Assembly (NCBI GenBank): GCA_015231405.1
Contig: JADGBR010000017.1
Span: forward strand, 1,651 to 65,482
Origin: Candidatus Omnitrophota bacterium
GTDB taxonomy: Bacteria > Omnitrophota > Gorgyraeia > Tantalellales > Tantalellaceae
Reading direction: 5' to 3'
DNA: 63,832 nt
This document shows, one piece after another, positions 40,201 to 63,832 of the stretch. Each line of letters begins with the position of its first letter. Positions within the stretch are counted from its first letter, which is position 1. The position numbers and the translations under genes were made by a program. The notes under the pieces were generated by a model. It was not told the origin of the DNA. It saw only the letters and a program-made list of their open reading frames with translations, and ran no database searches.

Positions 40201-40476
40201 GCTTCTCAATTGTTCGGACGCCAGGATCTTCCCGTGCCCGTTGAAGAGGATCCCCTTCCCGAAGTATTCCAGTTTCTTCCTGTCAAGTTCGGTATTCTCC
40301 CTGACAAGCCTGGTCTCCTCAAGTTCCTTAAGCCATACTGACCGCTTGAACTCGGGTTCGGCCATGCCGGTCCATGGAGACAGAGTGTCCGCTCCAAGCC
40401 CGAAAGACAATGGTTCGATCAAAAGGGTAAATATAAGTAATGAAGATATTATCTTACGCATTCTTATGGAGCCCAC
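34258..40476 (-). CDS. Giant (2,072 aa) protein: signal/anchor, ~1,200 aa helical-repeat region, PEP-utilizer phospho-His swivel, PPDK_N-type ATP-grasp, and an unknown C-terminal domain
   Basis: The probable start is ATG 40461 (MRKIISSLLIFTLLIEPLSFGLGA). The swivel is GDIIVADNIPADSPPLKDVGGIIVFSEDSLLSHPAIRARQYGVP (His codon 36208-36210). The nucleotide-binding domain has GNKAMRLGE, FFRSSTNAEDLFGYAGAGLYDSY, VWASVWNPRAFYDR, MAVLVHELI, GQGETLVSG and AQDIEG. Confidence 0.85.
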   Translation of the reverse strand: MGSIRMRKIISSLLIFTLLIEPLSFGLGADTLSPWTGMAEPEFKRSVWLKELEETRLVRENTELDRKKLEYFGKGILFNGHGKILASEQLRSDPKRLMKELAYEEIRMALSYLAGTRSGIYTLVRDETLKKREIISAYYRFIPEARKYRSKKDIFFIRMMAEAISLVSLTGDGKGYILDAELSPEEKCFVEAVSPVITFYRDTFFTDLLFSGNAREILVRSLLTTRGEEVQFDIPVTAKNGRHDEYLELLRNEVTKEYDYFKTFFDASKDLMPHIIVYELIRLFVEQGSLGDHDFSIYAYKLSLIIKKRPDLIMPNMVNVFCDMLESVNKAKALAAMGLIGDIAAVKPELIGDNVVSRVLDKLYDVEMIGKDKTRVQNTIAKIAGAKPARAREFMDILASTMTLSGGELKYEQDDMEVYTVIYGADPGQVDDGIFKNLFRALMMKMDSRANVHAIVRLYAEKPEYRDKIIEKIFSTLHSEHYRSMENYGRILALIAKRYPERREEVIRRLSAALDVKGDRNLPDDPNIWVSGSVYHVLEGSFDINFDIIDRKFFNKILKLLLITGQSRVSDLGFREICQAYIVEKPGDLKKSDLLDMIEGMKKGEAFKKQDIARVFSVAAEKRGDLLDRDMINEVRKLLDDDMPREDVVVDSSSHTKGAACLAYIGAYRSRPELFTPDLKDLVERAIGMERYGLAGDVSLLLAEFVKGADKAYGERIIGKMFEHLEGHASTNDIIDALTVIITNDRSYITPALVEKILPYLKVTFNQIAESTRGFLITVAALDPYGEGKKVLSDLVDRLRKGVNPVEEHDILDVAEGVALKTPATKSEEIYDLLKSLGGGFGVSDEDMIYGFGFLFGLAEKRDIMALDTVFEMASKSVDSDAIGELFRLAFAYLRKGEFDSFLGFLSEREGGLADSSDTAATNSIEAVVTEARNGLVNINPAVREQMDRRLTGGWNGVQAFVEEAVAHPVLGEMLLDKIIVSLRFLRQGVGDDVGFGTWADVEDRLPRIRNAVVNLLPVRDISFLTKRQLMKVMPLGDEDFLNTMREQARQMVIARSGSDRRDGLIGNLRNDIHNRPSPLQLETMKVLMDWLRAECSDPALESRLSRMGYPVDDSDRITDPERRERVLAACEPLLISLEEVYGEGNENKLDEMFTEWSRSLENMAEEKEFIQGAIRDSRAGGKPSIEVLDRLSTARLKLKQIIINSPGQSALPGMKLLNALEVLFFRLYTGMDKNYDDIHGDMDILRILSNNVIANGYDPGALEYMMKELAAMSASGKGTDLGKLYSIIKRMERYINLKAMHGVRRYQELAEHTAVGINVSEDDKIWVENFSSNIFRSDNIYLFALALKDIKRKVMEKGNISMWQVVVPGKMRGKFKMIKDPAELAMCGKGDIIVADNIPADSPPLKDVGGIIVFSEDSLLSHPAIRARQYGVPFAVCPDERVMDEIIEEYQGKNIEADIAGNKLVVVPEGDESGGAETKIQWKDYVEIPDPDLSNGGIILPGDYRPGNVGNKAMRLGEITRGDKMSKHLALGFGFYEKILGVFENKRSAGMIRGLSSRLRTAGEKDIPILLRLVQRKIKGLTIPRETLKDISEAIRREVGDKPVFFRSSTNAEDLFGYAGAGLYDSYGMIDPTDLDDIDKYVKAVWASVWNPRAFYDREANNIDHDSVRMAVLVHELIPADYGFVVHTRDPSASDNEEMIIELVQGQGETLVSGKTRYEGLPHRFAVNRLTKEIRRLAFANKDLKIVVEGRRLVEKEADYSNDIFDAEDGSVDGILRRIMGYALDIEKDLGMAQDIEGCLVGRADKTLDVIFVQARDQQGQEGSLIAAENESAVSWYPDDDAALDEAFGGFGKAGKDLGSDAKGIYSAEASSVKKKISGYESDGESMILFADDIVNNAFMTDIGPVMKIISKKNNIFRNGKIVIYAEVPENALLLEKMIKTAGTTFETVVILSSDVSMRKEISSETELVRALIKISRARGAREILGVFKGATKDPERLAGLSRKMEVPVVVFGMEKAIYSFAMALRLAMDVREKAGSEGWLVILPAVRKISLDMEERYQEYLQSLRTMVAA

Positions 40477-48193: not shown

Positions 48194-49702
48194 TCACTTC
48201 CAGGAATTACGGCGGGCAATAGCGTGGTCGTAGACGCGCTCGTATTTTTTGGCGGCCTTTTCCCAGGTATAATCCTCGTGCATGGCCTGCATGCGGAGTT
48301 TGGCGATGTGGTGTGGCCTGTCGTAGTAGGTGCTGACCGCCCAGCCGACCGTGTAGTATATCGATATGGGGTCCGGCGAATAGAACGCGAAGCCCGTGCC
48401 TGAGCCGGTGGCTTCGTCATAATTGAAGACCGTGTCGCGGAGCCCGCCGATCGACCTCACTATCGGAAGAGTCCCGTATTTCATGCTGTAGATCTGGCTG
48501 AGGCCGCAGGGCTCGTAAAGCGACGGCATTAGAAAGAAGTCCGCTCCGGCCTCGATCAAATGAGCTTTCCTGTTCTCGTACCCTATCCAGGTGCCGATGA
48601 CGCCGGGATATTCGGCGGGTAGCCCGCCGAAGAAATCCTCTTGGGATTTTTCGCCGCTGCCCACTATCGCGAATTGTACCATCATGTTATTGACGATGGA
48701 TCTTATGATAGGCGCCACGTGCTGGAATCCTTTCTGCTCGGCGAAACGCGTGATTATACCTATAACGGGGATATCGGTCCTTTCCTTGAGAAGGAACTCC
48801 TTCTGAAGAGCTCTCTTACATATGGATTTCCCGGAAATATCCGAAATGCTGTAATTCGCGGGTATAAGCTTATCTTTAGCCGGGTCCCAATGGTCATAAT
48901 CGGCGCCGTTCAGGATCCCGTAAAAGTCGTCCCTCCGACGCTCAAGATATGGCGCGAGACCTTTGGCGCCGTCAGGGGTTAAGAGCTCGTCCCTATAGGA
49001 ATCGCTGACGGTGGTGACATTGTCGGCATAGAATATTGCCCCTTTCATAAAATGCATCTTCTCGTAGCTCTCGAATTTCGGTTCGGTAAAATTCTCGGCG
49101 CCGAGGCCCATGAAAGGATAGAATTCCATGGGGAAAACCCCCTGGTATCCGATATTGTGTATCGTGAAAACGGAAGCGGTGTTAGCGAAAAACGGGTCAT
49201 AAAGGTATTTTATCTTAAGATAGCCCGGGATGAGCCCGGTCTGCCAGTCGTTGCAATGGACTACATCCGGCTGGAAACCGATATCCTTCGCGAGCTGGAG
49301 CGCGGCGTGGCAAAAGAACCCGAACCGCTCGGCATTGTCGAAGAATTCGTCGATACCGTCATCGTAATATCCGGCCCGGCCGAAATAACCCTCATGCTCT
49401 ATAAAATACACGGGAACGCCTTCTAGCTCGCCCTCGAGTACCTCGCACCAGACCGTGCCTAACCCCATCTGTACGCCCATGGGAGATACGGCCTTTTTCG
49501 GGGCATGCTGTGATTTATTGATGTTCCAATAGCGAGGAAGGACGAGTCTCACGTCATGGCCCATTTTCTTAAGGACCTTCGGGAGCGCGCCGCAGACGTC
49601 GCCCATGCCTCCGGTCTTGGCGAAAGGAACCGCTTCTGAAGCGACAAAAAGTATCTTTTTTTTTGTATTGGTTTTCTTTTTCCCGGGCATGGCGTTTATC
49701 AT
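48194..49702 (-). CDS. glgA: Glycogen/starch synthase (ADP-glucose type, GT5)
   Basis: 502 aa. ILFVASEAVPFAKTGGMGDVCGALPKVL (KTGGL-like motif), HCNDWQTGL, PSLYEPCGLSQIYSMKYGTLPIV. Confidence 0.92.
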   Translation of the reverse strand: MINAMPGKKKTNTKKKILFVASEAVPFAKTGGMGDVCGALPKVLKKMGHDVRLVLPRYWNINKSQHAPKKAVSPMGVQMGLGTVWCEVLEGELEGVPVYFIEHEGYFGRAGYYDDGIDEFFDNAERFGFFCHAALQLAKDIGFQPDVVHCNDWQTGLIPGYLKIKYLYDPFFANTASVFTIHNIGYQGVFPMEFYPFMGLGAENFTEPKFESYEKMHFMKGAIFYADNVTTVSDSYRDELLTPDGAKGLAPYLERRRDDFYGILNGADYDHWDPAKDKLIPANYSISDISGKSICKRALQKEFLLKERTDIPVIGIITRFAEQKGFQHVAPIIRSIVNNMMVQFAIVGSGEKSQEDFFGGLPAEYPGVIGTWIGYENRKAHLIEAGADFFLMPSLYEPCGLSQIYSMKYGTLPIVRSIGGLRDTVFNYDEATGSGTGFAFYSPDPISIYYTVGWAVSTYYDRPHHIAKLRMQAMHEDYTWEKAAKKYERVYDHAIARRNSWK

Positions 49703-50008: not shown

Positions 50009-50029
50009 GTCCTACATCCTACGTCCTAC
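50009..50029 (+). repeat. Heptamer tandem array (RTCCTAC)x3
   Basis: GTCCTAC ATCCTAC GTCCTAC, just downstream of the PilZ gene stop. Confidence 0.7.
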
Positions 50030-50035
50030 GGGACC

Positions 50036-50380
50036 TCAATGCTTGTCTACGTACTTACGAATAACCGCCGTCTGCCACGCGGATAGGGATATGAACTGGA
50101 GGCCTACGAGGAATTCGCCCGGGGAATCGCGGTTCGGTTCGCACCATATAGCTTCGGCGAATATTTCGACCTCGATATCGGCTTCGGGCAATGTCAGTTT
50201 GACCAGGAGTTTCTGGCCGGTGATAAGACATCTGGGTGAAACTAGTTTAAGCCCGCCTTCCGAGATATCGACGCTTTTCAAGCCCCGGATAGTTATTGCG
50301 AGATCTTTCCCCTGGAAAGTGACGCTCTCAGTCTCGCAAGGCGCCCTCTTGTACTTACGTTTTTCCGTATAGTTATCCAT
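50036..50380 (-). CDS. PilZ-domain (c-di-GMP binding) protein
   Basis: 114 aa. The RxxxR-like motif is EKRKYKRAP and the D/NxSxxG motif is DISEGGLKL. Confidence 0.7.
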   Translation of the reverse strand: MDNYTEKRKYKRAPCETESVTFQGKDLAITIRGLKSVDISEGGLKLVSPRCLITGQKLLVKLTLPEADIEVEIFAEAIWCEPNRDSPGEFLVGLQFISLSAWQTAVIRKYVDKH

Positions 50381-50394
50381 GCGACCCTCAGAAT

Positions 50395-50566
50395 AGTAGG
50401 TAGTAAGAAGTATGCAGTAAGCAGTGGGTTAGGCCTACCCGTCATTTTTCCCGCAAACTCCCTACTTACTTAAATCTCTCTGCCTACTGCTTACTTCTTA
50501 CTCCCTACTTTTCCTAAATCCCACATCATACATTAACGTAACACGTGACACATGACACGTGACACG
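50395..50566. repeat. Composite spacer made of three heptamer arrays (AGTARGN, its inverse NCYTACT, and ACRTGAC)
   Basis: AGTAGGT AGTAAGA AGTATGC AGTAAGC AGTGGGT (50395-50429). CCCTACT TACTTAA ... TGCCTAC TGCTTAC TTCTTAC TCCCTAC (50460-50508). ACGTAAC ACGTGAC ACATGAC ACGTGAC (50536-50563). Confidence 0.85.
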
Positions 50567-50567
50567 A

Positions 50568-53500
50568 TTACGCCGCTAACATCGCTTCCTTATCATACTG
50601 ATAAACGCGCCTCAGCTCTTCCTCGTCAAGCGGGATGATCGGAAGTATCTTTTTTAGTTTATCGAGCGCGAACCTCACCTTATTGTAATCGCTCCTCACC
50701 AGGGCCATAATGTCCTTTTCATCCAGGTCGAACCCGGATATCGTCGAAACTCCGGCAAGGTCCCCTAAAGTATCGATGGTCTCCCCGATAAAAGTTTTAT
50801 TATACTCGCCGTTAGCTATATGCACCAGCCTTAAACCCAGGAGCGTGCTCCTAATAAGCCCCGCCATGTCCTTCCCCTCGTCGTACATCCCGACAGGGAT
50901 AAGAATGGTGTCCTCCGGATCCATCATGCCTATCCTTTCCATCATGTCGATATTTGAGCCCAGATCCTCGTCCTTGCCGGTGATGAACAGCGTGACCGTG
51001 TTGGATCTCGACGGCACGATATCGAATTCTTCGCGCGTCATGCCGTATCGGGCATAATCCCGGTCCGTAACGGACCCTCGCCCGTTCGAACTATAAAGAG
51101 CCAGTTTCAGGTTAGACCCGTTCCCCGGCTTAAAGGCCGTGAGAAAATCCCGCGCGTTCTCCTCGCCGATAAGGTCCAACTCCTCGACAGGGACCCTGAT
51201 CACTACCGGTTTACGCCCCGACCCTATGACCCGCGGGAGAAAGTCCCGGCTCGAATCGATAAATCCGTCAAGAGCGATACGGTAAAGCTCTCCCGTCTCC
51301 CGGTAATTTTTGCCTCCCGGACCGTAGTTGCGATAAGTCCCTCCTCCTCCTGCATCGGCCGTCTGAACGGCCGCCGTTTCTTTCTTATGTTCATAAACCA
51401 CCGGCCCCGTAACCTCTTCATTAGGTCCCATTCCGGGCAATAAAAGCTGAGTCTGGCGGGCCGCTGTCTGTCCGGGAAGACCGGGTGTTTTGACTTTATC
51501 GCTTTTCTCAGGCATATCGGCGGGCGGCGCGCTTTCTTCCGGTCCCATCCCTGGAAAGAAAAGCTGGGTCGTCAGGGTAGCCGGCTGTTCCGAGGTCACG
51601 GTTGTTTCTAGATACGGTATGACTTCTTCGCGCGTCGCGAGAATATCGATGAGATCCACCAGTTCCCCGTGCCGGAGGTCCCGAATTCTCTCCGTAAAAT
51701 CTTTTATCCCGGCAAATTGTTTTTCGGACCTTTCACGGACAATAGCGGCTATAACTCTTGAAATAAGCCCTTCGTCTGCCATTAACCGCGGGTGTACCCC
51801 GGGGAGCGCGACCCTCAAGGTCTCGGCGAGATCCTCTTCCCGGGCCGTATTGAGGTACGCGGCAACGGCGTCGCTAAAAACGGCGTTCATCTTCCCTCTG
51901 GAGACCGGCTCTTCCCGTTCCGCTATCGGGAAGGCCGTGCCGGTCCTGGCATACTCTTTCTGAAGATAACCCTTAACTTCTTCCACCAGCTCTTTCATCC
52001 CGGGAGGAACGGATATCCAACTCCCCAACGAAGGGTCTATCTCAGCGGCGAACGCTATGCCGAAAAACTTGCGTAAAAGCTGCCTGCCGTCGCCTTTGAT
52101 CCTCTCTCCCCTAAAGTACCTTCTGAACTCCTTCGCGGCCTTTTTGGCACACCGGGCCGCCATCACATCTCCTTTTTCGGACCTTATCTCCATTATCTCG
52201 AATATTTTTTCGCCTACCTCCTCTATGATCCCGTATCGCAGTTGGTCCTTTATCTCGTCCGGTCGTTTTTTAATGATCCCGCTCGAGAATATTTCGTCTA
52301 TCGCTTTATCCCCGCTCTTATAAAAATCATTGAAAATTTTCCAAACGGTTTTTTCCAGGTCGCTTAATACGAGCTCTATCATATATCTTGGCCTGGACCC
52401 TCCGGAGACAGGCCGGCTTTCATGTTTCTGGCACGTTGATAAGACAAAAGCCTTGCCCTTTGGAGGCTCATTGACCCTAGTATAAGCGATATCCTTATCC
52501 AAAAGAAATCCGAACCCGCTGTCCTTGAAAAGCCTTGAAAGGCCGAAGATCTCTTTATCTCCCCAAACCCTGAAATATTCCGTACTCACGGGTCCATACC
52601 TCCCGGTCTTAGTGTCAAACCCGGGCATGCCCGCAAAAGGCCCGCCTTCAAAAACGGCCGGCGCCGGCCTCAACAGGAACCCTTTGAACTCCTCTTCGTC
52701 ATCCATAAGATACGGCGTGAGGATATCGCTCACCGTCATTACCCTTATGAACAGGCTGAACTCGTTCTGGTCCATAGAAAGGTCCTGAGATATCCTTTTT
52801 ATACTCATTCCTTCCCAGGACCCACGGTTTTCGATTATTTCCGAGGCGATCCTCGGCCGCCTTTTCTCAGCGCCCTTCCCCTTGAACACTCCGCGGAGCA
52901 CGCCGTTAATAAGTTCGTTCTTAAGCCTTTCTTTCGGCGCTTCCCTTAAGCAATCGGCTATCGCCCTCTCGATCCTCTCGTTCAAAGCGTCTCTTCTGTC
53001 AGCGCCTTCTATGTATCCGAGAGAATGACCGTTTTCCTTATACTCCTCCTCCAGAAATCCGGCTTCATCCCTTATCAGCTTTTCCATCCGCTCCGGCAGT
53101 TTCCCATACCATTTCTCAAGGCTCCTGTCGACGTACAAAGCGAAACATTTATTGAAATACTGGGTCACGTTCGGCCATTCTTTTTTCATATCCGAGGAAT
53201 GGCTCTTTCCCGCGGACTCAAGATATTCTTCCACCGCTTTTTGCCCGAATATCATTGCCTCCATATTCCCGGACCTCGCCTTCCTGCCCATCGACAGGAA
53301 TACGGCAACGCCGATATTGGACAGTAAATTCATGCGGTTAATGGCGGCGTACGCCTCTTTTTCGAAAACAGGGTCTTTAGCGGCCGGCTTACTGACAATC
53401 CCCGCCGAGAAGAAAGGCCTTTCCGAGTAGACATGTTTCGCCAGAAAATCCTCGTAATTTTTCAGGTGCAAATCCCGGGGATAATCGCATAACATGAACT

Positions 53501-56500
53501 TATAGAGTTTTCTGGACCGTCCGTTCTCCGGAGACATTTGGTCCGTGCCAGCCGTCCCGATAACCACGTCGGCGGTACTGCCGGTATTCGCGTCCTTTTT
53601 CACCCTTAGGAAGCCCATATCTTTATCGAAGAGAAAATCCAATCCCGCTTTCTTAAAAAGACCGGAGGCCATTCGCAGTTCTTCATCGCCTATGATCCTC
53701 ACGTACCCTTCCTCCGGCCCTTCATACGTCCCATTTTCATAGCCTATGACCCCGCTCACCCTTTTTTGCACTTCATCATGGCTGTCGCCGTAGTTGCCGT
53801 CTTCGGCGAACGGCATACCTTCAAAAACTGCGGGAGCGGGGCGTATGTCATAAGTTGCATGCCCTCCGAAGCCTTGGCGAAGAAGGACCGGTTCCTGGCC
53901 GCGGGATCCAGGCCGGCTTGCTTCGTCTCCCGGGAAGACCAGGTAGGGGTCTATGAGTCTCGACCCCTCCAGCGCCATCAGCGTCATTACGAACTCATTA
54001 CCCTGAAATTTTGGCAGCCTTCGTTTAGCGTCTTCGATCCCGGTGAACGGCGTTCTCCGTTTCGTAATTATATCGTTTATCACCTTGTCACGTTCTCCGG
54101 CGCTCTCAAAAACGGGGGCAACCTGTTTTAATATAGGCTTTAGACCGGCCTTCAACTTATCCTCCGGGGTTTTGTTCAGATAATCGACTACGGCTTTAGC
54201 GAAACATGCGTTCACTTCGGCCCTTTTCTCGGCCGTAAATTCCTCATATTTAAGATATTCTTCATCCCGGTAGTTTTCCCTTATGAACGCCGCCAGTTCA
54301 TCCAGAAAACGCGTCATCGACAACGGCACTTTTATCCATGAAGCGAGATCAGGATCGGCGTAAGCCGCGAACGCTGTAGTGAAATACTCCCTGGCACGGG
54401 CCACGTCAAAGCCCCCCTGCTCGGCGACCTTTCCGAACTCAAAGTATAATTTCCTCGCCAGTTTTAAGCCCTTCCTGTTCCGGGGATCATCCAGAAAAAC
54501 CTCCAGTACCCTCGCGATATCGGTAAACGCTTTATATTTTACGAACGAAACCAGGTCAGGAGGAACATCCGTAATGATCTCCTTGAAGCCCAGACCGGTC
54601 AAAAGAGACCCCGGGTTAGTTCCTAACGTGTTTACCAATCCGTCGTAACGCCCTTCGACCAGATCGTACAGGATAAGTTTAGCTATGGCCCTTTCTTCTT
54701 GGGGCTTTCCGGGGGATGAGACAGCGTCCTTAACGACCGATATGCTTGACAAACAGACCTCTTTTCTATCGGCGGCTTTCACGCGCGAATACCCGATGAC
54801 TTTCCGCAAAATAGGGCCGAACCCCTTACCTTCGACCTTAGCCCAAACCTCCCTAAGGGTTCCGTCGCTCATCAGCCTTTTGTAGCCCGGTTCAGGGTCA
54901 TTATACTTACCGTCAAAAACGACCGGGCCTTCAATAAGAGGATTGATCTCGCCACCCGTACCGTAATTCGTGTCCGCGCCAAGCGGTATCCCCTTATAAA
55001 GCACCGGGGCCGGGAGGAACAGGTCACCTGTTCCGGCGCCTCCGCCATCCTCCGGGTTTTCCTGTTCCAGAGCGCTCTGCCACGGGACTATTATCCCTTT
55101 ATCTATAGCCCTGAACGTTAATTCCACAAGGACGTCTTCCGTAAGGCCGCTTTTCCGGGATATACCGTCTATCCCGCTATACGGGCCGTTTACGCATAAC
55201 TTCATTACGGCGTCCCTTCGTTTCGCCTCGTCACCGGATCCTTTGATCTCCTTTATGGCTTCATATAGCTTAGCCACGCGGTCCGGAGCGTGGCCGTTCA
55301 AAAAATCCGTCAGCGTCGACCCGATCGCTTTTATCTGCTCCGGTCCCGTCAATTCGCCTTTTAACGGCAGATAAAATGCGCGGCCGTGCTCCCGGGCTTC
55401 GTCCCGGTAAAATTCCGCCAACTCCTTGAAGAACACCTTCTCCTCAGGGCTAATAGCCCCGGTATCTATCTTCAGGGCGGGATCGACGAATACGGGGAAC
55501 ACGGCTCTAATGAATACCCCAAGGAACTCGTCCCTTTCCCGTACCGACTTTGGCCATGAATACCAGTCCCGTCGCCGTATTCCCGGAGTGTCGGCGAAAC
55601 GTTTTACGGCCAGCTGAAAGGCCTTTCTGGTCAATTTGCCCGCTCTCTCTCCGCCTCTTGAGGCTTTCTGGCTGAGAACGCTGTATACCGCGCCGCCGGC
55701 CTGATACAGAAGTTCATACCGTACCCACGTCTCGAAAGCTTTCTTTTCAGTTTCAGGTCTCCCCCTGACAGCTTTCACGTTCACAAGATGCCCGACATAT
55801 CCACTCCCGCCGTATAGCTTCCCGACAATGGCCTCGTATACGTCCCGGACACAGTCGTACAATATAAGCTTCCCGTCGACCCAAAACTTTCCTCCGTCAG
55901 GCGCCTCACCCGCTAGGAGCGCTATATTCGAAAATCCCTGTACGGGGCCGGTGCCGGGGTTATTTTTTTCCACCCTGGCAAACCCCATGTCATGGTCCAG
56001 AACCGCCCCGAACCCCGCTCCCGACATTAATGCCGCTATATTTTCTATTTCCCCGTCGCTTACCACCCGTACGTATCCGGACCGGCATTCTTCGTAGCCC
56101 CCTTTTGCGGCGTCGAATGGAACGGTCTCGAGCCCAAGGGCGCCTATCTCGGCCGTCATGTTCCCGAAATTATCGTCCGCGGCGAAATCTGTCCCGCTGA
56201 ATAGGGTTCTCGCCGGGGCCATCGCCGGATAGACAGACCCTTCCTGGCCCCTTCTCTTTCCGGTTTTCTCCCTTAATTTATCATAGTCCACCCTCCCCGG
56301 ATTTTCGGGCATGTATTGCCATATCTGGTCGCCGCCCGTCAAATGCCAGACAAGAAAAGGAAGGTCGTTGTGGTCGTAACACTTAAAAACATCCCTGAAT
56401 TCCCTGAACGATGCGAACGGTTTTTTTCGTAATATCAGTTCCACCATATCGTGTCTTAGGGAAGCGTTTCCGTAACCCGGGCATTGCGTCTTAAGCGCCT

Positions 56501-59500
56501 GGTTCAATAAGATCTCCAGCCTGTCTTTCGGGGTATTATTTACAAGTTTCACGAAAGCGCCGTTAAATACCTCGTCTACCGCCATGAATTCAGCGTCTTT
56601 TGTTTTCGGCCGGGATATAAAATACTTTTCCCCGGCGTATTCCCTTCTGACGAATTCGCTCATTCTCCGGAAAACATTGGTCATTCCGGCGGGCATATCG
56701 ATCAATTCCAGGAGCGACGGATCGGCGTATGCGGCGAAACATATGCCCACGAACATTTCCATCCCGCCGGGCGTTTCGGGAATATTGTGTTTTTGCCTGG
56801 CCTTTCTGTATTCGAGCATGATATTGACCAGCAACTGGTGTTTTCTGAGATCGACGGAATCATTGACCGTCAACCTGGATAAAGTCTCGCCTATCTCCCG
56901 GAGAAGTTCGAACCTGGCGTAATCTTCAAGGCTTCGCGGGGTCCCTTTGATCAGATTGCCCTTATAAACATTCCCGTTAAAGAAAGGGATACCCGCACTT
57001 AAGTTATCCACGGTAAATAATTCGTAAAACACTTCATCGGGATAGTCCAGGAGGTTCAGTTTTATCATATGCCTTTTGAACTCGGACTGCCCGTATACGG
57101 GTTCCTGCTCCCCGATGAGAGTGAAAAGTCCCTGATAGTCCTTATTGACCCCTGATCCCCTGTAACCCTTTCCTTTGGCCCTCGTGAACGCTATGGCCTT
57201 ATCCAGAAATACCCCGAACCCGCTTTTATCCACCAGGTCCGATACCGCACGAACGGTTTCGTCCGACACCGGTCTTTTATATCCTTCCAGAGGGGGGTAG
57301 CTGTTGCTTTTTTCATCATACCGTATTTGTTCGACGATGACGGACCCCAACACATTCAAACGCGCCGCGCTATCGGCGCCGTAACTATCATCACGCGCGA
57401 AATCGGAGCCCGCGAAAATCACCGGTGCGGGCTTTAGTTTCGGCGCTTCTTCCTGAGGCCCGGACATGCTCGTCCCGGCGGACCCATTTTTGGGGACTTT
57501 AAGGCTCTCGCCCGCCACCCTGACGATAAAAGACCTGACCTCACGGGTCGTTTCAAGGACATTTAATAACCGGTTAGCGCCGCCTTCCGTCATTACCTTT
57601 ACCAGTTCGGCTTTCAATGCGGAGAAACTTTCGAACGTCTGATTTTTTTTGATGAACACCGAAATGACCCGCTGTCTTTCGCCGGAAACGGACCCCAGCC
57701 CTTTCAATATTCTGTTAAGCTGCTGCTCGAGCCTTGGTGTTTTCTTCATTACGTTGACATACTCAAGTATCCCCCGATCGATCGTATCCCTTAGCTCCCG
57801 GGCGCGGCTCTCTTGGGACAAGAGAAAGAAAGCGCTCCCGTAGCTGTCGCGTTCTGAAGACAGAAAATCCCTTACTTTACCGGGCAGCGGCAGGATACCC
57901 GTATTTACCGGGCCGTCGATCCATTCGGAGAGCGAAGGGTCCAGATGAAAAGCGAAGGCTTTACTGAAAAGCTCTCTCTGCTCCACCCCCTCGACGTCAT
58001 ACCACCCTTCCCGCCTTTTATTAATGCCCTTCGCGAATATACCGCTGATCTCGGACACCAGGAGGAAAGCGGCTATATCGCCTCTATTACCTTTTCGGAC
58101 AAGCATGTTATATATAGTCTCGCCGATGTTCATTAGCACCTTGTATTTTATGATGATGTTGTATGCTTCGCTCGTGAACCCGTCGTCCCTTGTACCCGCG
58201 CGCTTAGCCTTCTTCGGGTTTATTATCGGCTCATCTCCATAAATATTATTTTCGACTATTCTCCGATAATATGCGTCGAAAGCAGCTTTGTCATAATCGT
58301 AAAAGACGAACTTATTTAACTCCCTGCCGCTTCCGTCTTCTTCTTTACCGAATTCTTCCGCGTACACGGCGCTGCCAAAGATGAGCTGCTTCCTGTCCGC
58401 GCCTTCCCCTTTCTTTTTTGCCCTGGAGTAAGCCATGTCTTTCTCGAACAGGAACCCGAACCCGGCGTTATTGACTAGATCCGATATTTCGCCAACAACG
58501 CCGTCCGGCACGGTCCTCTGCCATCCTTCCTCGCGGGAATACTTTCCGCCGGCGAACGTTACGCTTCCGGCGATATCGGCCTTGAGCGGCTCCTCCAGGT
58601 CGCCGTAGTCGGAATCCGACCCGAACGGAACGCCTCCGAAAACGGCCGGGGCCGGGCTAAAAGGATACTTGCCGCTTTCTTCCTCCCCGGATACCCCAGG
58701 CCCTTCGGCTGAAGCCTCTGTCTCAGATTTCCGTTTGGCCTCATTCGTCGCTTCACCCGTTATTTTTTCACTTATACGGAAGGCGTAACCATGCGATTCG
58801 TATTCGTCTTCAAGAAGATCCCGTATCTCTTCAAACAGCTTCGCTTCCTCATCACTTATCCTGGTATATTCCCGCTTCGCGGCCCGGACCTTAAGCATGA
58901 TACCGTCATCTCTTAACGCGTATAATGGGAAGAAGCCGCCCATGAAGGCGTCCTGCCCTTTTCTGACTTTGTCGATATCGCCGGATCCTTCCTTCTGGTC
59001 CGAAACCATGCCGCGATCTTTCACTTTTACCCTCTCGGCGGCACTGTTGAGCCTGTAAATGAGGCCCGTTGCCCTCATATCGCCGTTCTGTGCCTTCGCA
59101 CGCAATGCCTCTAAGATAATACTCCCCATCCCGCGATATAGATCATAGACGATCTTATCCCTCATAGACGCGTTCTCGATGATCTCATCCAACGCGTGTT
59201 CGTAGTTCAGGTATTCTTCGCGGGGATCCTTAATAGCGATATCGTACGTGACTATTTTTCCGGCTATCCGCGTTTCTTCGCCCTCGCCTCTTAACGGCCG
59301 CCGATCGGTGCCGACGTTCACGTATTCCATTATCCTTCCGGCTTCGACGGTCTCTATCTTCTTCCTCAAACGCGAATGGCCTATATCGCGGTCCAGCAAG
59401 AAACCAAATCCCGCCTCCTCCGCCAAAGCGGAGAACTCCATGATCACATCATCGCTTACCAGCCTTACATATCCTTCCTCCGGAGCCTGATAAACCCCTA

Positions 59501-62500
59501 AAAGATCATCGTACAGGGTTGTCGCCGTTCCGTCGGCAAGGTCATCATTAATTTCCGCGAAATCATCCCCGAAAAAAACCTCTTCCACAGGCCTCAGAAT
59601 GTACGTCACTTCTCCAGGCATGTCTTTTTCGGGATTTCCATCTTCAACAACTTCATCTCTATCCTCTTCCATTCCTGTCTCTTTATCTCCGGCAATCTCA
59701 CCTGCCGCGTTTTTTGTCCCGATGCCACCCGTACCGTTCCTGCCCTTACCGTTATCTTTCGGGTTCTTATACCTGTCGACTAGGGACCGCCACGCGTTCT
59801 TAGTTATCTCGCCGTCGTATATGGCTCGCGAATTGAGCGCCATTATGAGTTCCTGTATCTCGGCCCTGTCTCGGTCCTCCTGGACCCGAACGGCGCCGGA
59901 AGGGTCTATATCCATTTCCTGGCATACATAAGAGACAAAAGCTTTTATCCTGTCGTGATGGGCGCTCTCGTAATATGCCTCGTGGGAGAGCACGAGTATC
60001 TTCATGGCCGTAATAAGCTCCGAGTGTTTACCCTCCGAGTCCGTCTTATCTATGAAATATTCTTTAAGCCTTTTCTGCCAATCCGCGGGACGATCTATCG
60101 TTATACTGCCTTCATGCGGCCATTTCACTATCCCCGCCGCCCTTTCGAGCTCGGCTCTTTTCGCCCTCAGCTCTTTGACCTTATCGTTCATTTCCTCGAG
60201 CACTTTGTCTTTGGCTTCTTTACCGTTACTAAGGCCGGCAAGGCGCGCATCCAGCCATTTTAACGTCGAGTCCAGCTCGTCTTTCATGGCCGTGAACTCT
60301 TCCATTAGGGCATCCACCTCCAGAACGTATTCCTCTTGGGCGGTCTGCCTGGCCATCTTTTCGCGTTCGGCCTTCTTTATCGCCCCGAAACGCGTTGCCG
60401 AGGGTATCCTTTCTTTCATGCGAGGAAGAGCGTCGGCGAGGATATCGACGGCCGACTTCCCATTTATTTCTGACAGGTTATATTTAGCGAGCAGATTTTT
60501 TCCGGCCGCCCCGGACGCCTGATCTCTCTTTATTTTCATGAGCTGTTTTACGACCTGTCCGACCGTAACGAATTCCACGTTCCTTAAAAGGTCCTCCCCC
60601 AGCTGGGCCTTTATCTCGTTAAGCTTCCCTGGGTCACGAAGTATTATCGTCAGCTTATCCGGTAGCCGGTAATTCTCGCCTATCACCAGACGCCCGTTCC
60701 TGTCCTTTATATTCAGGTTCCACAGCCTTTCTATGCTGGGTATGTTCATGCCCCTTATATCTTCCCGGCTGTGCATTTTCATCAACCTCTTGTATTTCTT
60801 CACCGTCTCAACGACATCCTCCACGAGTAACCCCCATTTAGTATCCGCGAAGAACATCCCGCGCCTGAAAAGATCGGGATAGCGTATGTCGGTCGTGAAC
60901 GCGTTCACGGGGAACACCTTATTGAACTCCACGCCCCCGTTCTCCCGGGCTCCATATACGGAAACGTAAAGCCGCCAGACCAGCTCCTCGAATATCCACC
61001 CTTTTAAAAAATTGTAGTTCTTTTCCCCGGGATGGCCGTTCCCGTTTTCACTATCCACGGCCAAAAGCCCGGAGCCGTTCTCATCGCCGTCAGGTCGGTG
61101 TTTTTTTTCGCTTTCCGCGCCCCAGGCCGGGCCTCTCGCGTTCCTTCTCGTCCGAGCCGTGCCTTCCTTCTTTTCGGATTCTTTGGTTTCGACTACGGTC
61201 TCGTCCTTGTAAAGTTCCCATACCACCTGTTCGTCGTTCCTCTCGTCCCGCTCTTCCGCGTTAGGCTCTTCCTTCCTGATATATATCTTTGCCCTGTATT
61301 CGTTCTCGTCCACGCCAAGTATCTGGACAAGGACCCTCCGGCCCTTCGCGCTCTGGTCGTTCTCCATCAGGTGCCCTCCGCCCATCGTCAGTGTGCCGTT
61401 TGCCGGGACGGTGGTGCCGATATAAAGCGACCCCTTAGCGCTATTAGCGAATATGGCCCCTAGATCTTTCTTGTACACACGGCTTTTTCTCTCATTTCCT
61501 TCATTTCCTCTGGCGAGCCTCAAGCCCCATTCGTCGAAAAGCTCGGAATCCCTATAGATATCAAGCGCCAGAAAATTCCTCAAAAGTTTTATTTTACGGC
61601 CATGCTCCCCGTCGTCCTCCAGATAAAAAACACGGTATTTCGCGCCGTCCTTATACTCGACTAGCACCCTCCTGCCGCGATGATCGTCGGCGTGATATAC
61701 GGGCTCCCCGTAAACGCTTAGATATCCATGTTTTGAGACCGGGACTTCCGCGACCAGATAGCCGTATTTGTCAAGGTCAGCCGGTTTTGTGTTGCGGTCC
61801 TTCTGCGACTTGTCAGGAAACTCCGAGATCTCGTACTCGTCCTCATAGGGGTCGTCCTTGTCCGATATCGAACCCATCGAAGCGTGGACGTAGGTATACA
61901 CCTCCCGGTCTTTCACGAACGCTTTCCCAATGAACTCGCCGGCAGCGTCCGAAGTAAAGATCATCCCGAAAACGGCCTCGAGTAAATAGACCCCGTCTTT
62001 CCTGGAAAAATGTTCCTTTCTGACGTTTTTTTTCTCTTTATCCCACCACTCATATTTTTCGAACGCGCCGAAAGGCACAGCCTTTATCCTTCCGGACTCG
62101 GCCCCATCGATATCTATGACCATATCCGCCGAACCTGACACATTGCTTGTTTCCAGCCGGACATTTACATATCTGTCATCTATCAGCCTATCCAGCATGA
62201 AAGCGAATAAGGCCAGCGGATTGTTCATAAGGTCCTTCACCTTGGTCCTAGGCAGGCTGAACCCGAAATGGCCGCGCCTGATAAGGTCGTGATACCCCCG
62301 GGGTGGAAGTCTCTCTATGTACCCTTTAAGGGTCTTAAAAAGACCGGCGTACCTTGTCCCCTCGGTGAGCTCCTCGACGCGGCTAAGATGCAGATACCTT
62401 GAAAAATCTATATCCTCGTCGCCGAACGCTTCGCGCTGGAATACGCGGGAATAATAGTGTTCGTCATCCGACCGGGCCTCTTTCGACAGGCCTTTTATAC

Positions 62501-63832
62501 GGCCCCCTGTGTCGACCCACCAGGACTCCGTCTCCAAACCGCTGAATAACCCCGAAGACACATCGATATCGACGCTCTCATCGGCCTGGACGCCCGGCAC
62601 TTCCGAAAAAATAACAGTTATTTTTTTCCTGTCAGAGGATATGAGAATAAGACCTTTCTTCTGCAGGTATTCGAGCACCTCGTGAAATAGAAGTACGGGT
62701 TTTTCCTTGTAGTCGCAGTACAGGCAAACGATATTGTTTTGTTCCGCCGTGAACCCGAACAGGTCCCCGGAAGTCTCGCCGAACTCGTAGAATTCCGGAG
62801 GAGAATTTAGGAGCAGTTTAAGAAAAATATTAAGTATCCGCTCATGTTCGGGGTGCCTGGCGATCAATGCCTCTAAAACAGGCTTTATTACCGGAAGATC
62901 CCTCGCCGTATCGGCCGGAAAAAGCTCGACCTTTTCCTTTAAGACCTTATGGCCTTCCGGCTCGCCAGCGGGCTCAGTACTTACGATAGTGAAATATTTT
63001 ACTCCGTCCTCTTCTCTGAGCTGAACGGCTTTCGCCCTCTTCCCGATCTGGGAGGAAGCGTCTATTCCCGGCATCTCCCCGAAGATATCCGAACTGTCGA
63101 ATTCGTATTTCTCATAAGCGGGAGTGGTATCCACGCCCGCTTTCCAGCGCCTTTCGAAATACTGTTTATTGATCAGAAGCGCCAGCTTGATGGCTTCTTC
63201 CCTTCTTCCGGGATCGTTAATTAGCGCCGGGAACTCACCTCTGGCCTCCAGGAGCTTCTCTTTCCTTTCGGTGTTCCTCATTTTCCCGACGAGCTCCCCG
63301 TCGACGAAAAGCCAGAGCCTTAGCCTCCTTTCGAACACGTCATTGTCGTACCTGATCCCGTCGCTCGCTAGATATGAGTGGAGGAACCACAGCCACATAG
63401 CGTCGTCGACGACGCTGTAGCGCCTGCCGACAAGATTCGCCATGAGTTCGCTTTCCGCTCCGTATCTCATCTTGACCGCGCCGTCCTCGCCGTAATGCAC
63501 GTGCCCCTCGCCGTCACGGTCCCTGAGATCGAACTCATGCATGGCCGCGCGGTAGCAGATCGAATCGGCCAGGTCTATTACCCTGGTCTTACCGTCCCCG
63601 AACGCGTATCCGAATTTAAGCCTCGCGTTCCGGAGGTCCTTGATATCTTCGATGAACCCGGGGTGAAGAAGAAGTTTTTTTCCGCCGTCGACCAGCCTCG
63701 ATATCCTGTACTGCTCTTCGAGCGTCGGAAAGCTGTTTATTCCGATCTCTACCTTCGCTGCAAGCGCCGGCACATTGTATTTTTCCGCGCCTTTATCCCT
63801 GATGCGCTCGAATATTCCTTCCGTAGTCAGTT
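50568..63832 (-). CDS. Giant protein of at least 4,401 aa (5' end outside the window) with seven tandem ~310-410 aa modules; function unknown
   Basis: The track start is GTG 63773, but the frame stays open (…LTTEGIFERIRDKGAEKYN-VPALAAK…) to nt 63832. Module anchors recur seven times: [LF]xPAPxxFxG, GY[VK]RxxSD, GFGFL[LF]DKD[IM]xxxR[VA]K, FAAYADPxLxxWI. No internal stop in 13.2 kb. Confidence 0.85.
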   Translation of the reverse strand, partial: LTTEGIFERIRDKGAEKYNVPALAAKVEIGINSFPTLEEQYRISRLVDGGKKLLLHPGFIEDIKDLRNARLKFGYAFGDGKTRVIDLADSICYRAAMHEFDLRDRDGEGHVHYGEDGAVKMRYGAESELMANLVGRRYSVVDDAMWLWFLHSYLASDGIRYDNDVFERRLRLWLFVDGELVGKMRNTERKEKLLEARGEFPALINDPGRREEAIKLALLINKQYFERRWKAGVDTTPAYEKYEFDSSDIFGEMPGIDASSQIGKRAKAVQLREEDGVKYFTIVSTEPAGEPEGHKVLKEKVELFPADTARDLPVIKPVLEALIARHPEHERILNIFLKLLLNSPPEFYEFGETSGDLFGFTAEQNNIVCLYCDYKEKPVLLFHEVLEYLQKKGLILISSDRKKITVIFSEVPGVQADESVDIDVSSGLFSGLETESWWVDTGGRIKGLSKEARSDDEHYYSRVFQREAFGDEDIDFSRYLHLSRVEELTEGTRYAGLFKTLKGYIERLPPRGYHDLIRRGHFGFSLPRTKVKDLMNNPLALFAFMLDRLIDDRYVNVRLETSNVSGSADMVIDIDGAESGRIKAVPFGAFEKYEWWDKEKKNVRKEHFSRKDGVYLLEAVFGMIFTSDAAGEFIGKAFVKDREVYTYVHASMGSISDKDDPYEDEYEISEFPDKSQKDRNTKPADLDKYGYLVAEVPVSKHGYLSVYGEPVYHADDHRGRRVLVEYKDGAKYRVFYLEDDGEHGRKIKLLRNFLALDIYRDSELFDEWGLRLARGNEGNERKSRVYKKDLGAIFANSAKGSLYIGTTVPANGTLTMGGGHLMENDQSAKGRRVLVQILGVDENEYRAKIYIRKEEPNAEERDERNDEQVVWELYKDETVVETKESEKKEGTARTRRNARGPAWGAESEKKHRPDGDENGSGLLAVDSENGNGHPGEKNYNFLKGWIFEELVWRLYVSVYGARENGGVEFNKVFPVNAFTTDIRYPDLFRRGMFFADTKWGLLVEDVVETVKKYKRLMKMHSREDIRGMNIPSIERLWNLNIKDRNGRLVIGENYRLPDKLTIILRDPGKLNEIKAQLGEDLLRNVEFVTVGQVVKQLMKIKRDQASGAAGKNLLAKYNLSEINGKSAVDILADALPRMKERIPSATRFGAIKKAEREKMARQTAQEEYVLEVDALMEEFTAMKDELDSTLKWLDARLAGLSNGKEAKDKVLEEMNDKVKELRAKRAELERAAGIVKWPHEGSITIDRPADWQKRLKEYFIDKTDSEGKHSELITAMKILVLSHEAYYESAHHDRIKAFVSYVCQEMDIDPSGAVRVQEDRDRAEIQELIMALNSRAIYDGEITKNAWRSLVDRYKNPKDNGKGRNGTGGIGTKNAAGEIAGDKETGMEEDRDEVVEDGNPEKDMPGEVTYILRPVEEVFFGDDFAEINDDLADGTATTLYDDLLGVYQAPEEGYVRLVSDDVIMEFSALAEEAGFGFLLDRDIGHSRLRKKIETVEAGRIMEYVNVGTDRRPLRGEGEETRIAGKIVTYDIAIKDPREEYLNYEHALDEIIENASMRDKIVYDLYRGMGSIILEALRAKAQNGDMRATGLIYRLNSAAERVKVKDRGMVSDQKEGSGDIDKVRKGQDAFMGGFFPLYALRDDGIMLKVRAAKREYTRISDEEAKLFEEIRDLLEDEYESHGYAFRISEKITGEATNEAKRKSETEASAEGPGVSGEEESGKYPFSPAPAVFGGVPFGSDSDYGDLEEPLKADIAGSVTFAGGKYSREEGWQRTVPDGVVGEISDLVNNAGFGFLFEKDMAYSRAKKKGEGADRKQLIFGSAVYAEEFGKEEDGSGRELNKFVFYDYDKAAFDAYYRRIVENNIYGDEPIINPKKAKRAGTRDDGFTSEAYNIIIKYKVLMNIGETIYNMLVRKGNRGDIAAFLLVSEISGIFAKGINKRREGWYDVEGVEQRELFSKAFAFHLDPSLSEWIDGPVNTGILPLPGKVRDFLSSERDSYGSAFFLLSQESRARELRDTIDRGILEYVNVMKKTPRLEQQLNRILKGLGSVSGERQRVISVFIKKNQTFESFSALKAELVKVMTEGGANRLLNVLETTREVRSFIVRVAGESLKVPKNGSAGTSMSGPQEEAPKLKPAPVIFAGSDFARDDSYGADSAARLNVLGSVIVEQIRYDEKSNSYPPLEGYKRPVSDETVRAVSDLVDKSGFGVFLDKAIAFTRAKGKGYRGSGVNKDYQGLFTLIGEQEPVYGQSEFKRHMIKLNLLDYPDEVFYELFTVDNLSAGIPFFNGNVYKGNLIKGTPRSLEDYARFELLREIGETLSRLTVNDSVDLRKHQLLVNIMLEYRKARQKHNIPETPGGMEMFVGICFAAYADPSLLELIDMPAGMTNVFRRMSEFVRREYAGEKYFISRPKTKDAEFMAVDEVFNGAFVKLVNNTPKDRLEILLNQALKTQCPGYGNASLRHDMVELILRKKPFASFREFRDVFKCYDHNDLPFLVWHLTGGDQIWQYMPENPGRVDYDKLREKTGKRRGQEGSVYPAMAPARTLFSGTDFAADDNFGNMTAEIGALGLETVPFDAAKGGYEECRSGYVRVVSDGEIENIAALMSGAGFGAVLDHDMGFARVEKNNPGTGPVQGFSNIALLAGEAPDGGKFWVDGKLILYDCVRDVYEAIVGKLYGGSGYVGHLVNVKAVRGRPETEKKAFETWVRYELLYQAGGAVYSVLSQKASRGGERAGKLTRKAFQLAVKRFADTPGIRRRDWYSWPKSVRERDEFLGVFIRAVFPVFVDPALKIDTGAISPEEKVFFKELAEFYRDEAREHGRAFYLPLKGELTGPEQIKAIGSTLTDFLNGHAPDRVAKLYEAIKEIKGSGDEAKRRDAVMKLCVNGPYSGIDGISRKSGLTEDVLVELTFRAIDKGIIVPWQSALEQENPEDGGGAGTGDLFLPAPVLYKGIPLGADTNYGTGGEINPLIEGPVVFDGKYNDPEPGYKRLMSDGTLREVWAKVEGKGFGPILRKVIGYSRVKAADRKEVCLSSISVVKDAVSSPGKPQEERAIAKLILYDLVEGRYDGLVNTLGTNPGSLLTGLGFKEIITDVPPDLVSFVKYKAFTDIARVLEVFLDDPRNRKGLKLARKLYFEFGKVAEQGGFDVARAREYFTTAFAAYADPDLASWIKVPLSMTRFLDELAAFIRENYRDEEYLKYEEFTAEKRAEVNACFAKAVVDYLNKTPEDKLKAGLKPILKQVAPVFESAGERDKVINDIITKRRTPFTGIEDAKRRLPKFQGNEFVMTLMALEGSRLIDPYLVFPGDEASRPGSRGQEPVLLRQGFGGHATYDIRPAPAVFEGMPFAEDGNYGDSHDEVQKRVSGVIGYENGTYEGPEEGYVRIIGDEELRMASGLFKKAGLDFLFDKDMGFLRVKKDANTGSTADVVIGTAGTDQMSPENGRSRKLYKFMLCDYPRDLHLKNYEDFLAKHVYSERPFFSAGIVSKPAAKDPVFEKEAYAAINRMNLLSNIGVAVFLSMGRKARSGNMEAMIFGQKAVEEYLESAGKSHSSDMKKEWPNVTQYFNKCFALYVDRSLEKWYGKLPERMEKLIRDEAGFLEEEYKENGHSLGYIEGADRRDALNERIERAIADCLREAPKERLKNELINGVLRGVFKGKGAEKRRPRIASEIIENRGSWEGMSIKRISQDLSMDQNEFSLFIRVMTVSDILTPYLMDDEEEFKGFLLRPAPAVFEGGPFAGMPGFDTKTGRYGPVSTEYFRVWGDKEIFGLSRLFKDSGFGFLLDKDIAYTRVNEPPKGKAFVLSTCQKHESRPVSGGSRPRYMIELVLSDLEKTVWKIFNDFYKSGDKAIDEIFSSGIIKKRPDEIKDQLRYGIIEEVGEKIFEIMEIRSEKGDVMAARCAKKAAKEFRRYFRGERIKGDGRQLLRKFFGIAFAAEIDPSLGSWISVPPGMKELVEEVKGYLQKEYARTGTAFPIAEREEPVSRGKMNAVFSDAVAAYLNTAREEDLAETLRVALPGVHPRLMADEGLISRVIAAIVRERSEKQFAGIKDFTERIRDLRHGELVDLIDILATREEVIPYLETTVTSEQPATLTTQLFFPGMGPEESAPPADMPEKSDKVKTPGLPGQTAARQTQLLLPGMGPNEEVTGPVVYEHKKETAAVQTADAGGGGTYRNYGPGGKNYRETGELYRIALDGFIDSSRDFLPRVIGSGRKPVVIRVPVEELDLIGEENARDFLTAFKPGNGSNLKLALYSSNGRGSVTDRDYARYGMTREEFDIVPSRSNTVTLFITGKDEDLGSNIDMMERIGMMDPEDTILIPVGMYDEGKDMAGLIRSTLLGLRLVHIANGEYNKTFIGETIDTLGDLAGVSTISGFDLDEKDIMALVRSDYNKVRFALDKLKKILPIIPLDEEELRRVYQYDKEAMLAA

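Follow-up and report, generated by a model that had tools for sequence, protein, structure and literature searches.

A giant protein of seven tandem modules between conserved ends in an Omnitrophota bacterium: a candidate exported binding scaffold

The giant adhesins of the Bap, RTX and SiiE types are exported arrays of Ig-like beta-sandwich domains, each of about 100 amino acids (aa), set between distinct terminal domains, and ComEA is an exported DNA receptor. Giant repeat proteins with unannotated content are also already known from uncultured bacteria, and especially from the Omnitrophota. A recent preprint gives multi-enzyme giant proteins as typical of the Omnitrophota (Nielsen & Lui 2026, bioRxiv 10.64898/2026.06.07.730766). 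Annotation-free giant proteins are a recognised blind spot, and they are suspected of acting in the attachment to, or the attack on, host or prey cells. The subject of this report is one such protein, encoded on the minus strand at one end of the window, by which we mean the whole analysed stretch of 63,832 nucleotides (nt) from contig JADGBR010000017.1 of a Candidatus Omnitrophota bacterium. The greater part of the protein consists of seven strongly diverged tandem modules, and its two ends are conserved in a small family whose interior is variable. The reading preferred here, which is a tentative one, is that the giant protein could be exported and serve, without catalysis, as a multivalent scaffold that binds a ligand, perhaps nucleic acid, a function deduced from sequence comparison and structure prediction.

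A single gene with seven modules

The giant open reading frame (ORF) occupies positions 50568-63830 of the minus strand. Translation yields 4,420 codons in one frame, and the sole stop codon is the terminal one at 50568-50570. The original prediction had described a single uninterrupted frame that stays open past the GTG at 63773, from which the ORF listing counted 4,401 aa, up to the window edge, and this description is correct. An identical partial protein of 4,420 aa is found in the public record on a 66,011-nt NCBI contig, and so the gene is cut by the end of the contig and not merely by that of the window. Extension of the contig toward the true start was unsuccessful in that the last 71 nt of the window, used as a query, matched nothing among genome contigs or metagenome contigs. 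The length of the missing part can nonetheless be estimated by alignment to full-length relatives, which implies about 150-170 further residues including the signal peptide; the full protein would have about 4,600 aa.

This ORF is a genuine single gene. A stretch of 13.2 kb free of stop codons at a GC content of about 52% excludes chance, and the encoded protein is colinear along its full length with a complete homologue of 3,192 aa (P0004). The sequence comes from a metagenome-type assembly and the contig ends inside the gene, and one might therefore suspect mis-assembled repeats or a decaying gene. This suspicion is close to refuted: apart from the open frame, the colinearity extends from end to end to independent homologues of other assemblies, and strong purifying selection acts on the C-terminal domain, whose ratio of nonsynonymous to synonymous substitution rates (dN/dS) is 0.075 at a synonymous divergence (dS) of about 1.3 relative to its nearest relative. 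The DNA of the module copies is likewise too diverged for mis-assembly. Tandem Repeats Finder detects no repeat of module size in the window DNA, and the residual DNA similarity between modules is limited to patches of 43-50 nt with 60-79% identity. These patches occur only at the GFGFLLDKD motif, at the coordinates that the original prediction had given for this anchor, and they are spaced 1,128-1,242 nt apart. With copies this different, assembly collapse or chimeric joins between them are implausible. That the array arose by tandem duplication in recent times, or through collapse in the assembly, was also considered, and is ruled out by the DNA divergence of the copies.

The seven modules together span aa 1410-4084, which is 60% of the protein, and measure 312-409 aa each. 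A self-BLAST with 150-aa windows recovers the expected seven-fold periodicity: the seven copies align in register, and the lowest E-values reach 2e-22. Module borders were defined by a MAFFT alignment (A1) and by a hidden Markov model (HMM) built from that alignment, which scores 313-479 bits per copy; the resulting lengths essentially agree with those first proposed. Module 1 (M1; 58668-59603, minus strand, as are all features of the window given below; aa 1410-1721, 312 aa) is truncated and lacks the helix-hairpin-helix (HhH)-like tail. It is followed by M2 (57441-58667; aa 1722-2130, 409 aa), M3 (56226-57440; aa 2131-2535, 405 aa), M4 (55023-56225; aa 2536-2936, 401 aa), M5 (53850-55022; aa 2937-3327, 391 aa), M6 (52677-53849; aa 3328-3718, 391 aa) and M7 (51579-52676; aa 3719-4084, 366 aa). 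The anchors are present in the predicted order, namely the PAPAVF entry, D.NYG (in five of the seven copies), GY.R..SD, GFGFLLDKD..Y.R.K and FAAYADP. Pairwise identity between modules is 20-28% over the aligned columns and, together with the loss of any nucleotide tandem, agrees with the view of an old and strongly diverged array. M2, M3, M5, M6 and M7 cluster together in a neighbour-joining tree, which is poorly resolved. This grouping suggests an expansion that is lineage-specific but old.

Searches of the Pfam, PHROGs and NCBIfam libraries with the whole giant protein gave nothing significant, and the same searches with all homologues gave no family match apart from a GT5 domain in P0010 (see below). 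PDB sequence searches with single sequences and with profiles of the modules (A1 and A3), the N-terminal domain (A4), the C-terminal region, the nuclease-like region (A5) and the FHE..EY region (A7) were also without a significant match. An AlphaFold2 model of M2, built with the seven copies as the alignment, has a predicted local distance difference test score (pLDDT) of 72.6 and a predicted template modelling score (pTM) of 0.75. The module begins with 43 residues predicted to be disordered (1-43, pLDDT < 50), which span PAPAVF and the acidic part. These lead into a small alpha/beta subdomain (the GY.R strand, a helix, the GFGFLL..Y.R.K strand and the KL.LYD strand), and the remainder is a long helical bundle and then a multi-helix tail. 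Foldseek comparison of the model with the PDB and with the viral library BFVD returned no neighbour below E = 0.1. None of the domain and structure libraries searched thus contains a relative of the module core that could be detected, and the earlier statements that the protein has no recognisable catalytic domain, and that no module could be assigned to a familiar family, both stand.

The last 85 aa or so of M2-M7 share the pattern LN.A..E.L ... G.G ... R..I...I...R...PF.S..D...R, and had been called a ComEA-like tail. A profile of 12 tails (A6; six from the window and six from relatives) matches the HhH part of PDB 2i5h with E = 7e-5, and also PDB 27ae, an entry named "DNA-binding protein", with E = 1.4e-3, both over only about 30 residues. 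The M7 tail alone matches Pfam HHH_6 with E = 4e-4 and DUF655 with E = 0.06, and the M5 tail matches HHH_6 with E = 0.15. The best of these HHH_6 matches, that of M7, scores 20.9 bits and the gathering score of the family is 25.6. In the M2 model, six helices over residues 286-388 cover the tail. The ComEA-like label is therefore reasonable, if below threshold.

A family defined by its ends

Relatives are extremely rare. A word-indexed search with the module alignment gave no hits, the window's own protein included. When 1.84 billion protein representatives were searched exhaustively with an HMM, just 12 clusters reached E <= 1e-3, and that of the window protein is among them. The relatives with names come from metagenome-assembled genomes (MAGs) of Candidatus Omnitrophica/Omnitrophota and of "uncultured Planctomycetia". 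A family with common end domains, here called bookends, can be defined, and its members are the window protein, P0003, P0004, P0007, P0009, P0013/P0016, L003, L005 and L007.

The conserved C-terminal bookend domain of the window protein (50571-51353; aa 4160-4420; alignment A2) is preceded by YR.YGPG..YRETG, a version of the family motif Y..GPG..Y.E.G, and ends in ...MLAA. It is 36-83% identical to that of four relatives and also terminates L003, L005 and L007. An AlphaFold2 model (pLDDT 70.7, pTM 0.75) predicts a four-stranded parallel alpha/beta unit with additional helices. The best Foldseek match in the PDB, at E = 0.024, is generic (SIS isomerases, HPRT) and non-significant. The nearest relative, P0015 at locus L008, has a C-terminal domain with 83% protein and 78% DNA identity to that of the window. 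The DNA similarity ends exactly at the boundary of this domain, at window nt 51363. Upstream of that point there is neither DNA nor BLASTP similarity to L008, although L008 has a tail-like unit there. The linker between M7 and the C-terminal domain (51354-51578; aa 4085-4159), which carries a duplicated Q[LF][LF][LF]PGMGP[EN]E motif, similarly has no counterpart in P0015.

The very last residues of the family are a small non-polar dipeptide in the window protein (50571-50582) and in P0004, P0009, P0015, P0016, L003, L005 and L007; the ends read -LAA, -VAA, -IAA, -TAA or -TSA, with the consensus -[AS]A. Such ends resemble the non-polar tails that are recognised by tail-specific, or C-terminal-processing, proteases.

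The conserved N-terminal bookend domain (63081-63830; aa 1-250; A4) contains the invariant motifs DLADSI.YR.AMHEF.L..R.G..H and VG..YS.VDDAMWLW.LHSY. It is 42-51% identical to that of five relatives, with 58 invariant columns, and it has no Pfam or PDB match. The region that follows is less conserved, with about 25% identity to P0004 and P0007 over residues 227-1420, and several features can be recognised within it. A conserved region at aa ~290-520 (62271-62963) is marked by SPP...GDLFGF...PV..FHEVLEYL; its HEVLE, at aa 383, is the one place in the giant protein with an HE..[HE] motif, and no HExxH occurs anywhere in the 4,420 aa. Homology of the module core to this FHE..EY region was considered and rejected (hhalign probability 0.2%). 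A duplicated unit, G.L...G....GRRVLV..Y, had been proposed further downstream, and its two copies lie at 61626-61766 (aa ~689-735) and 61281-61436 (aa ~799-850). Within the window the duplication is only marginally above chance, with a local alignment score of 39 and z = 2.7 (nine of 500 shuffles reach this score), but both copies are retained in P0004 and P0007. The long coiled-coil stretches of the original prediction reduce to one of about 90 aa (60126-60383; aa ~1150-1235), with weak Pfam hits, among them CENP-F_leu_zip at E = 2e-4, under the family cut-off. The window protein lacks a long coiled-coil insert, of about 650 aa, that P0003, P0004 and L003 have.

The N-terminal part also contains a basic region (60741-61019) with a string of motifs like those of PD-(D/E)xK nucleases, KG.IFEE..W ... 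RYPD ... ADTKWG. Its FEE, RYPD and ADTKWG elements (aa ~938-1030) are invariant in four proteins (A5, 22 invariant columns), and the isoelectric point (pI) of aa 931-1100 is 9.5. One of the four sequences matches Pfam McrBC with E = 0.016, and the A5 profile has no PDB hit.

Between the bookends the family is highly variable. P0003, P0004 and P0007 have two modules each, as against seven in the window, and P0003 has additional tail-like units; at least two modules are present in P0002. In P0009 a single module is accompanied by an HEGRH motif and by the common C-terminal domain. The ~400-aa module is missing altogether from four proteins that were found through searches with the end domains: L003, a 1,856-aa protein of a "Planctomycetia" MAG, L005 and L007, metagenome proteins of 1,910 and 2,982 aa, and L001. 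The last is a family protein in the form of three adjacent genes of 381, 878 and 439 aa in an Omnitrophota MAG (JAPLMG010000093.1, 5369-10554). Module number therefore varies from 0 to 2-3 in the relatives (0-2 in most) to 7 in the window. Conserved ends around a variable interior define this family.

Two further observations were made on the module-less members. The first and second genes of L001 share 4 nt, and near each junction lies a Y[RH]DEGPG motif, so that the protein is either naturally split at this motif or broken by assembly frameshifts. In addition, L003 (990-6560), L005 (8012-13744) and L001 (6511-10554) contain another kind of internal repeat, about 70-90 aa long, which in L003 reads, for instance, ...KALFLDLVKQAAN...GGYPGVFTVWREDIAKAIEEATG... 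and in L001 ...IPDAI..LYDNGVDLNA.AI..DT..ET..LL..V.G..RTG..LY.... The presence of different repeats in these members argues that different lineages have filled the interior with repeat cassettes that are unrelated to one another.

Catalysis, export and ligand

An indication of what the modules may once have been comes from four distant versions. P0005, P0006, P0008 and P0010 contain one module core each, without the tail; P0008 (5,487 aa) and P0010 (2,869 aa) are large multi-domain proteins of the multi-enzyme type mentioned above, and in P0010 the module core is fused with a Pfam GT5 starch-synthase domain. In all four single-copy versions, one helix carries LHE[IV][GS]E and a helix further on carries F[AS]D.F. 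The His is lost in all seven window copies, which read NIGET, GMGSI, EIGET, QAGGA, DIARV, NIGVA and EVGEK, and the His of HE..E is likewise absent from the module copies of the close family. The residues that stay invariant, or almost so, across 18 modules are limited to two Arg, a Gly, an Asp and a Phe. We infer that an ancestral, possibly metal-dependent domain was turned into a non-catalytic unit in the bookend family, and the loss of the His is the reason for taking the module array as putatively non-catalytic.

P0008 also contains a short peptide, G-A-R-[LIM]-[AS] (GARLA, GARLS, GARMA), which occurs about 10 times, apparently between unrelated regions, with one copy immediately ahead of its single module. 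It could be a linker or processing motif, analogous to the PAPxxF of the window protein.

One might suppose from the conserved residues that the modules are still active, as enzymes of an undescribed class, and that the giant protein is a multi-catalytic machine that acts on a polymer of a host or prey cell, for example cell-wall glycan, nucleic acid or protein. The two Arg and the Asp are invariant or nearly invariant in all modules, the distant homologues retain the metal-site-like HE..E ... D within multi-enzyme giants (one with GT5), and many Omnitrophota giants are read as degradative effectors in the literature. However, the His is absent from every window and close-family copy, an identity of 20-28% is high divergence for seven copies that keep one chemistry, and there is no structural neighbour with an active site for comparison. 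Active modules are therefore somewhat unlikely.

The disordered entry of each module raises the question of whether the giant protein remains in one piece. It may be a polyprotein or pro-protein from which cuts at the [KR]PAPxxF linkers release units of about 400 aa. The protease could be encoded within the giant protein itself or by other members of the family, in which zincin-like HExxH motifs occur. No other feature of the module borders is as specific in position as the entry motif, which lies in predicted disorder, as cleavage sites often do, and is kept by homologues in the forms KPAPVLF, KPFPKLF, QPYPVVF and EPAPVAF. Some family members do have HExxH motifs, namely HEGRH in P0009 and HEKAH and HEALH in L007, and the proteolytic processing of proproteins is listed among the functions of Omnitrophota giant proteins by West-Roberts et al. 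(2023, bioRxiv 10.1101/2023.11.21.568195). The window protein itself has only HEVLE, as described above, the Pfam, PHROGs and NCBIfam libraries detect no protease family, and a docking peptide or a contact between modules would explain a short conserved linker motif equally well. A processed precursor is accordingly judged unlikely.

With respect to location, all six complete N-termini of the family (P0003, P0004, P0007, L003, L007 and L002) carry a Sec-type signal peptide, with a K/R-rich n-region, a hydrophobic core of 12-15 aa and an end of the A/S-x-A/S type. No transmembrane (TM)-like stretch occurs in the 4,420 aa of the window protein, in which the 19-residue Kyte-Doolittle average peaks at 1.57. 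The giant protein is probably exported. An alternative is that the N-terminal segment stays uncleaved and holds a membrane-anchored scaffold facing the cytoplasm, where it would organise, for example, glycogen- or nucleoid-related factors. This alternative draws on the genes nearby, since a GT5 glycogen synthase is encoded two genes downstream on the same strand (48194-49702) and a 2,072-aa protein resembling glucan water dikinase is also encoded near, as well as on the module-GT5 fusion in P0010. Elements like HhH and PD-(D/E)xK usually work on intracellular DNA, and many long Omnitrophota proteins are predicted to be TM-anchored and cytoplasm-facing, according to Nielsen & Lui (2026). The order of elements in the signal peptides points the other way: the positive charges precede the hydrophobic segment and a small-residue motif of the cleavage type comes after it, which would put the bulk of the protein outside the cytoplasm. 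Gene neighbourhoods are also not conserved in the family, so that the adjacency of GT5 is probably coincidental. A cytoplasm-facing scaffold is thus an improbable arrangement.

The preferred reading, that of an exported binding scaffold, can be put together as follows. Each module would consist of a disordered acidic linker with a [KR]PAPxxF peptide, a core made up of an alpha/beta part and a helical bundle, and (in M2-M7) an HhH-like tail, and would act as a single unit in the binding of a polymeric ligand. The array of such units would form a binding scaffold outside the cytoplasm, in which the number of modules would set avidity or reach. Binding of a polymer, with nucleic acid as the leading candidate, is suggested because of the sub-threshold HhH matches of the tails and the nuclease-like motif. 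The end domains may handle export, anchoring or assembly, and the interior would evolve or recombine quickly between these strongly conserved domains.

Several points weigh against this reading. The loss of a single His is no proof of lost activity. Export is deduced from homologues, because the window's own signal peptide is missing, and the distant module versions in multi-enzyme giants lie beside cytoplasm-type enzymes (GT5 in P0010), so that the module is not intrinsically extracytoplasmic. As for nucleic acid, HHH_6 is matched at E <= 1 by just two of the six window tails (M7 and M5), both below the gathering score, the net charge of the tails is mixed (three basic and three acidic), and the whole giant protein is acidic, with a pI of 5.5 that is atypical for a DNA binder. 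The nuclease-like region is a candidate at the motif level only. Finally, the AlphaFold2 models are built on shallow alignments of 5-7 sequences.

A bolder version can be envisioned in which the modules belong to an undescribed superfamily. An ancestral HE..E ... D metal enzyme, present as a single copy within multi-enzyme giants of the Omnitrophota type, would have become a His-less binding unit in the bookend family, acquired a ComEA-like tail and been multiplied to seven copies. Together with the nuclease-like region, these would make up an exported machine for the capture and processing of extracellular or prey nucleic acid, with an interior that recombines between fixed ends. This version is a long shot.

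Neighbouring genes and comparison with known systems

A gene for a 114-aa PilZ-domain protein (50036-50380; Pfam PilZ E = 1.9e-12) begins 187 nt past the stop codon of the giant gene. PilZ domains typically bind the second messenger cyclic di-GMP. The arrangement of giant and PilZ genes is shared only with the nearest relative, L008, where the PilZ gene has 84% DNA identity, and this hints that the two genes are co-regulated. Other members of the family are flanked by Ala racemase and IlvD genes, by glycine-cleavage genes, or by FecR and PEBP genes. A functional operon link to the glycogen synthase was considered and rejected: the neighbourhoods within the family differ completely, and GT5 domains are common in long Omnitrophota proteins (Nielsen & Lui 2026).

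Short tandem repeats of heptamers, read on the strand of the giant gene, are found in both intergenic regions of this arrangement. GTGTCAC/GTGTCAT/GTGTCAC/GTGTTAC, with CACGTG palindromes, occupies 50539-50565, starting 3 nt past the stop codon of the giant gene, and GTAGGAC/GTAGGAT/GTAGGAC occupies 50010-50029, after the PilZ gene. Neither type occurs again within the window, and both may be regulatory elements or substitutes for terminators.

The 2,072-aa ORF mentioned above (34258-40476) resembles alpha-glucan water dikinase in its C-terminal third (phosphohistidine domain plus PPDK_N), and its ~1,350 N-terminal residues have no Pfam match. Signalling genes are unusually abundant in the window. 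They include a 1,017-aa fusion of CheB methylesterase, CheR methyltransferase and PAS domains (8743-11796), which adjoins a 1,495-aa histidine kinase with multiple PAS domains (4119-8606).

The giant protein can be compared with four kinds of known system. The first is the zincins, such as anthrax lethal factor. The distant modules resemble them in having HE..E on a long helix after a small beta-sheet subdomain, and the degenerate domain of lethal factor has lost its HExxH, in parallel with the loss of the His from the window modules. Unlike zincins, the modules have HE..E rather than HExxH in their distant versions, and no Pfam or PDB sequence match. The top Foldseek hits of the M2 model do include ERAP2 and lethal factor, at a non-significant E = 0.3-0.75 and a TM-score of 0.12-0.17. 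A zincin-like origin of the module is only a lead, because of this non-significance, the absence of HExxH and the lack of relationship between the core and the FHE..EY region.

The second is the ComEA/(HhH)2 group (Pfam HHH_3/HHH_6; PDB 2i5h). The tails of M2-M7 are predicted to be helical like these domains, and their profile matches HhH proteins. They differ in falling below the gathering threshold, in having a G-hydrophobic-G hairpin that is degenerate in several copies, and in being acidic in half of the cases; moreover, the HhH-like tail makes up just one fifth or so of each module.

The third is the giant repeat adhesins. Like them, the window protein is a giant, probably exported, tandem array of a diverged domain whose copy number varies among relatives. 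Unlike them, it has a module of about 400 aa that is predicted to be alpha/beta plus helical, with a disordered acidic linker, and its export would use an N-terminal Sec signal, judging from the relatives. Pfam and NCBIfam searches of the protein detect neither Ig-like, cadherin or RTX families nor families of type I secretion signals.

The fourth is the giant proteins of the Omnitrophota themselves, as described by Nielsen & Lui (2026) and West-Roberts et al. (2023). The window protein resembles their long proteins in being giant, in the signal peptide of its family and in being mostly sequence-unique. It also resembles the tandem-repeat scaffolds among them, in that seven copies of one domain dominate and the nucleotide tandem is dissolved, and its named relatives come from Omnitrophota MAGs. 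It differs from the scaffold class of Nielsen & Lui (2026) in size, since about 4.6 kaa is below their catalogue cut-off of 10,000 aa, and it differs from the long proteins in that it has no visible TM helices, SecA-like domain or dockerin, and in that its repeat is not a Pfam family. An architecture of N- and C-terminal bookends does not appear in the searched parts of either source. What is new is twofold: the module and the N-terminal and C-terminal domains are absent from the libraries searched, and the bookend architecture has a swappable interior.

Given the extreme rarity of the family (12 clusters in 1.84 billion representatives), the immediate impact of these results is for specialists, unless the idea of nucleic-acid capture or that of a polyprotein should be true. 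Characterisation of the module or the end domains would allow three unannotated domain families to be named and would provide a handle on export, anchoring and diversification. Set beside the other annotation-free giants, the locus is a tractable example, in which the borders of the module, its conserved residues and its range in copy number (0 to 7) are mapped.

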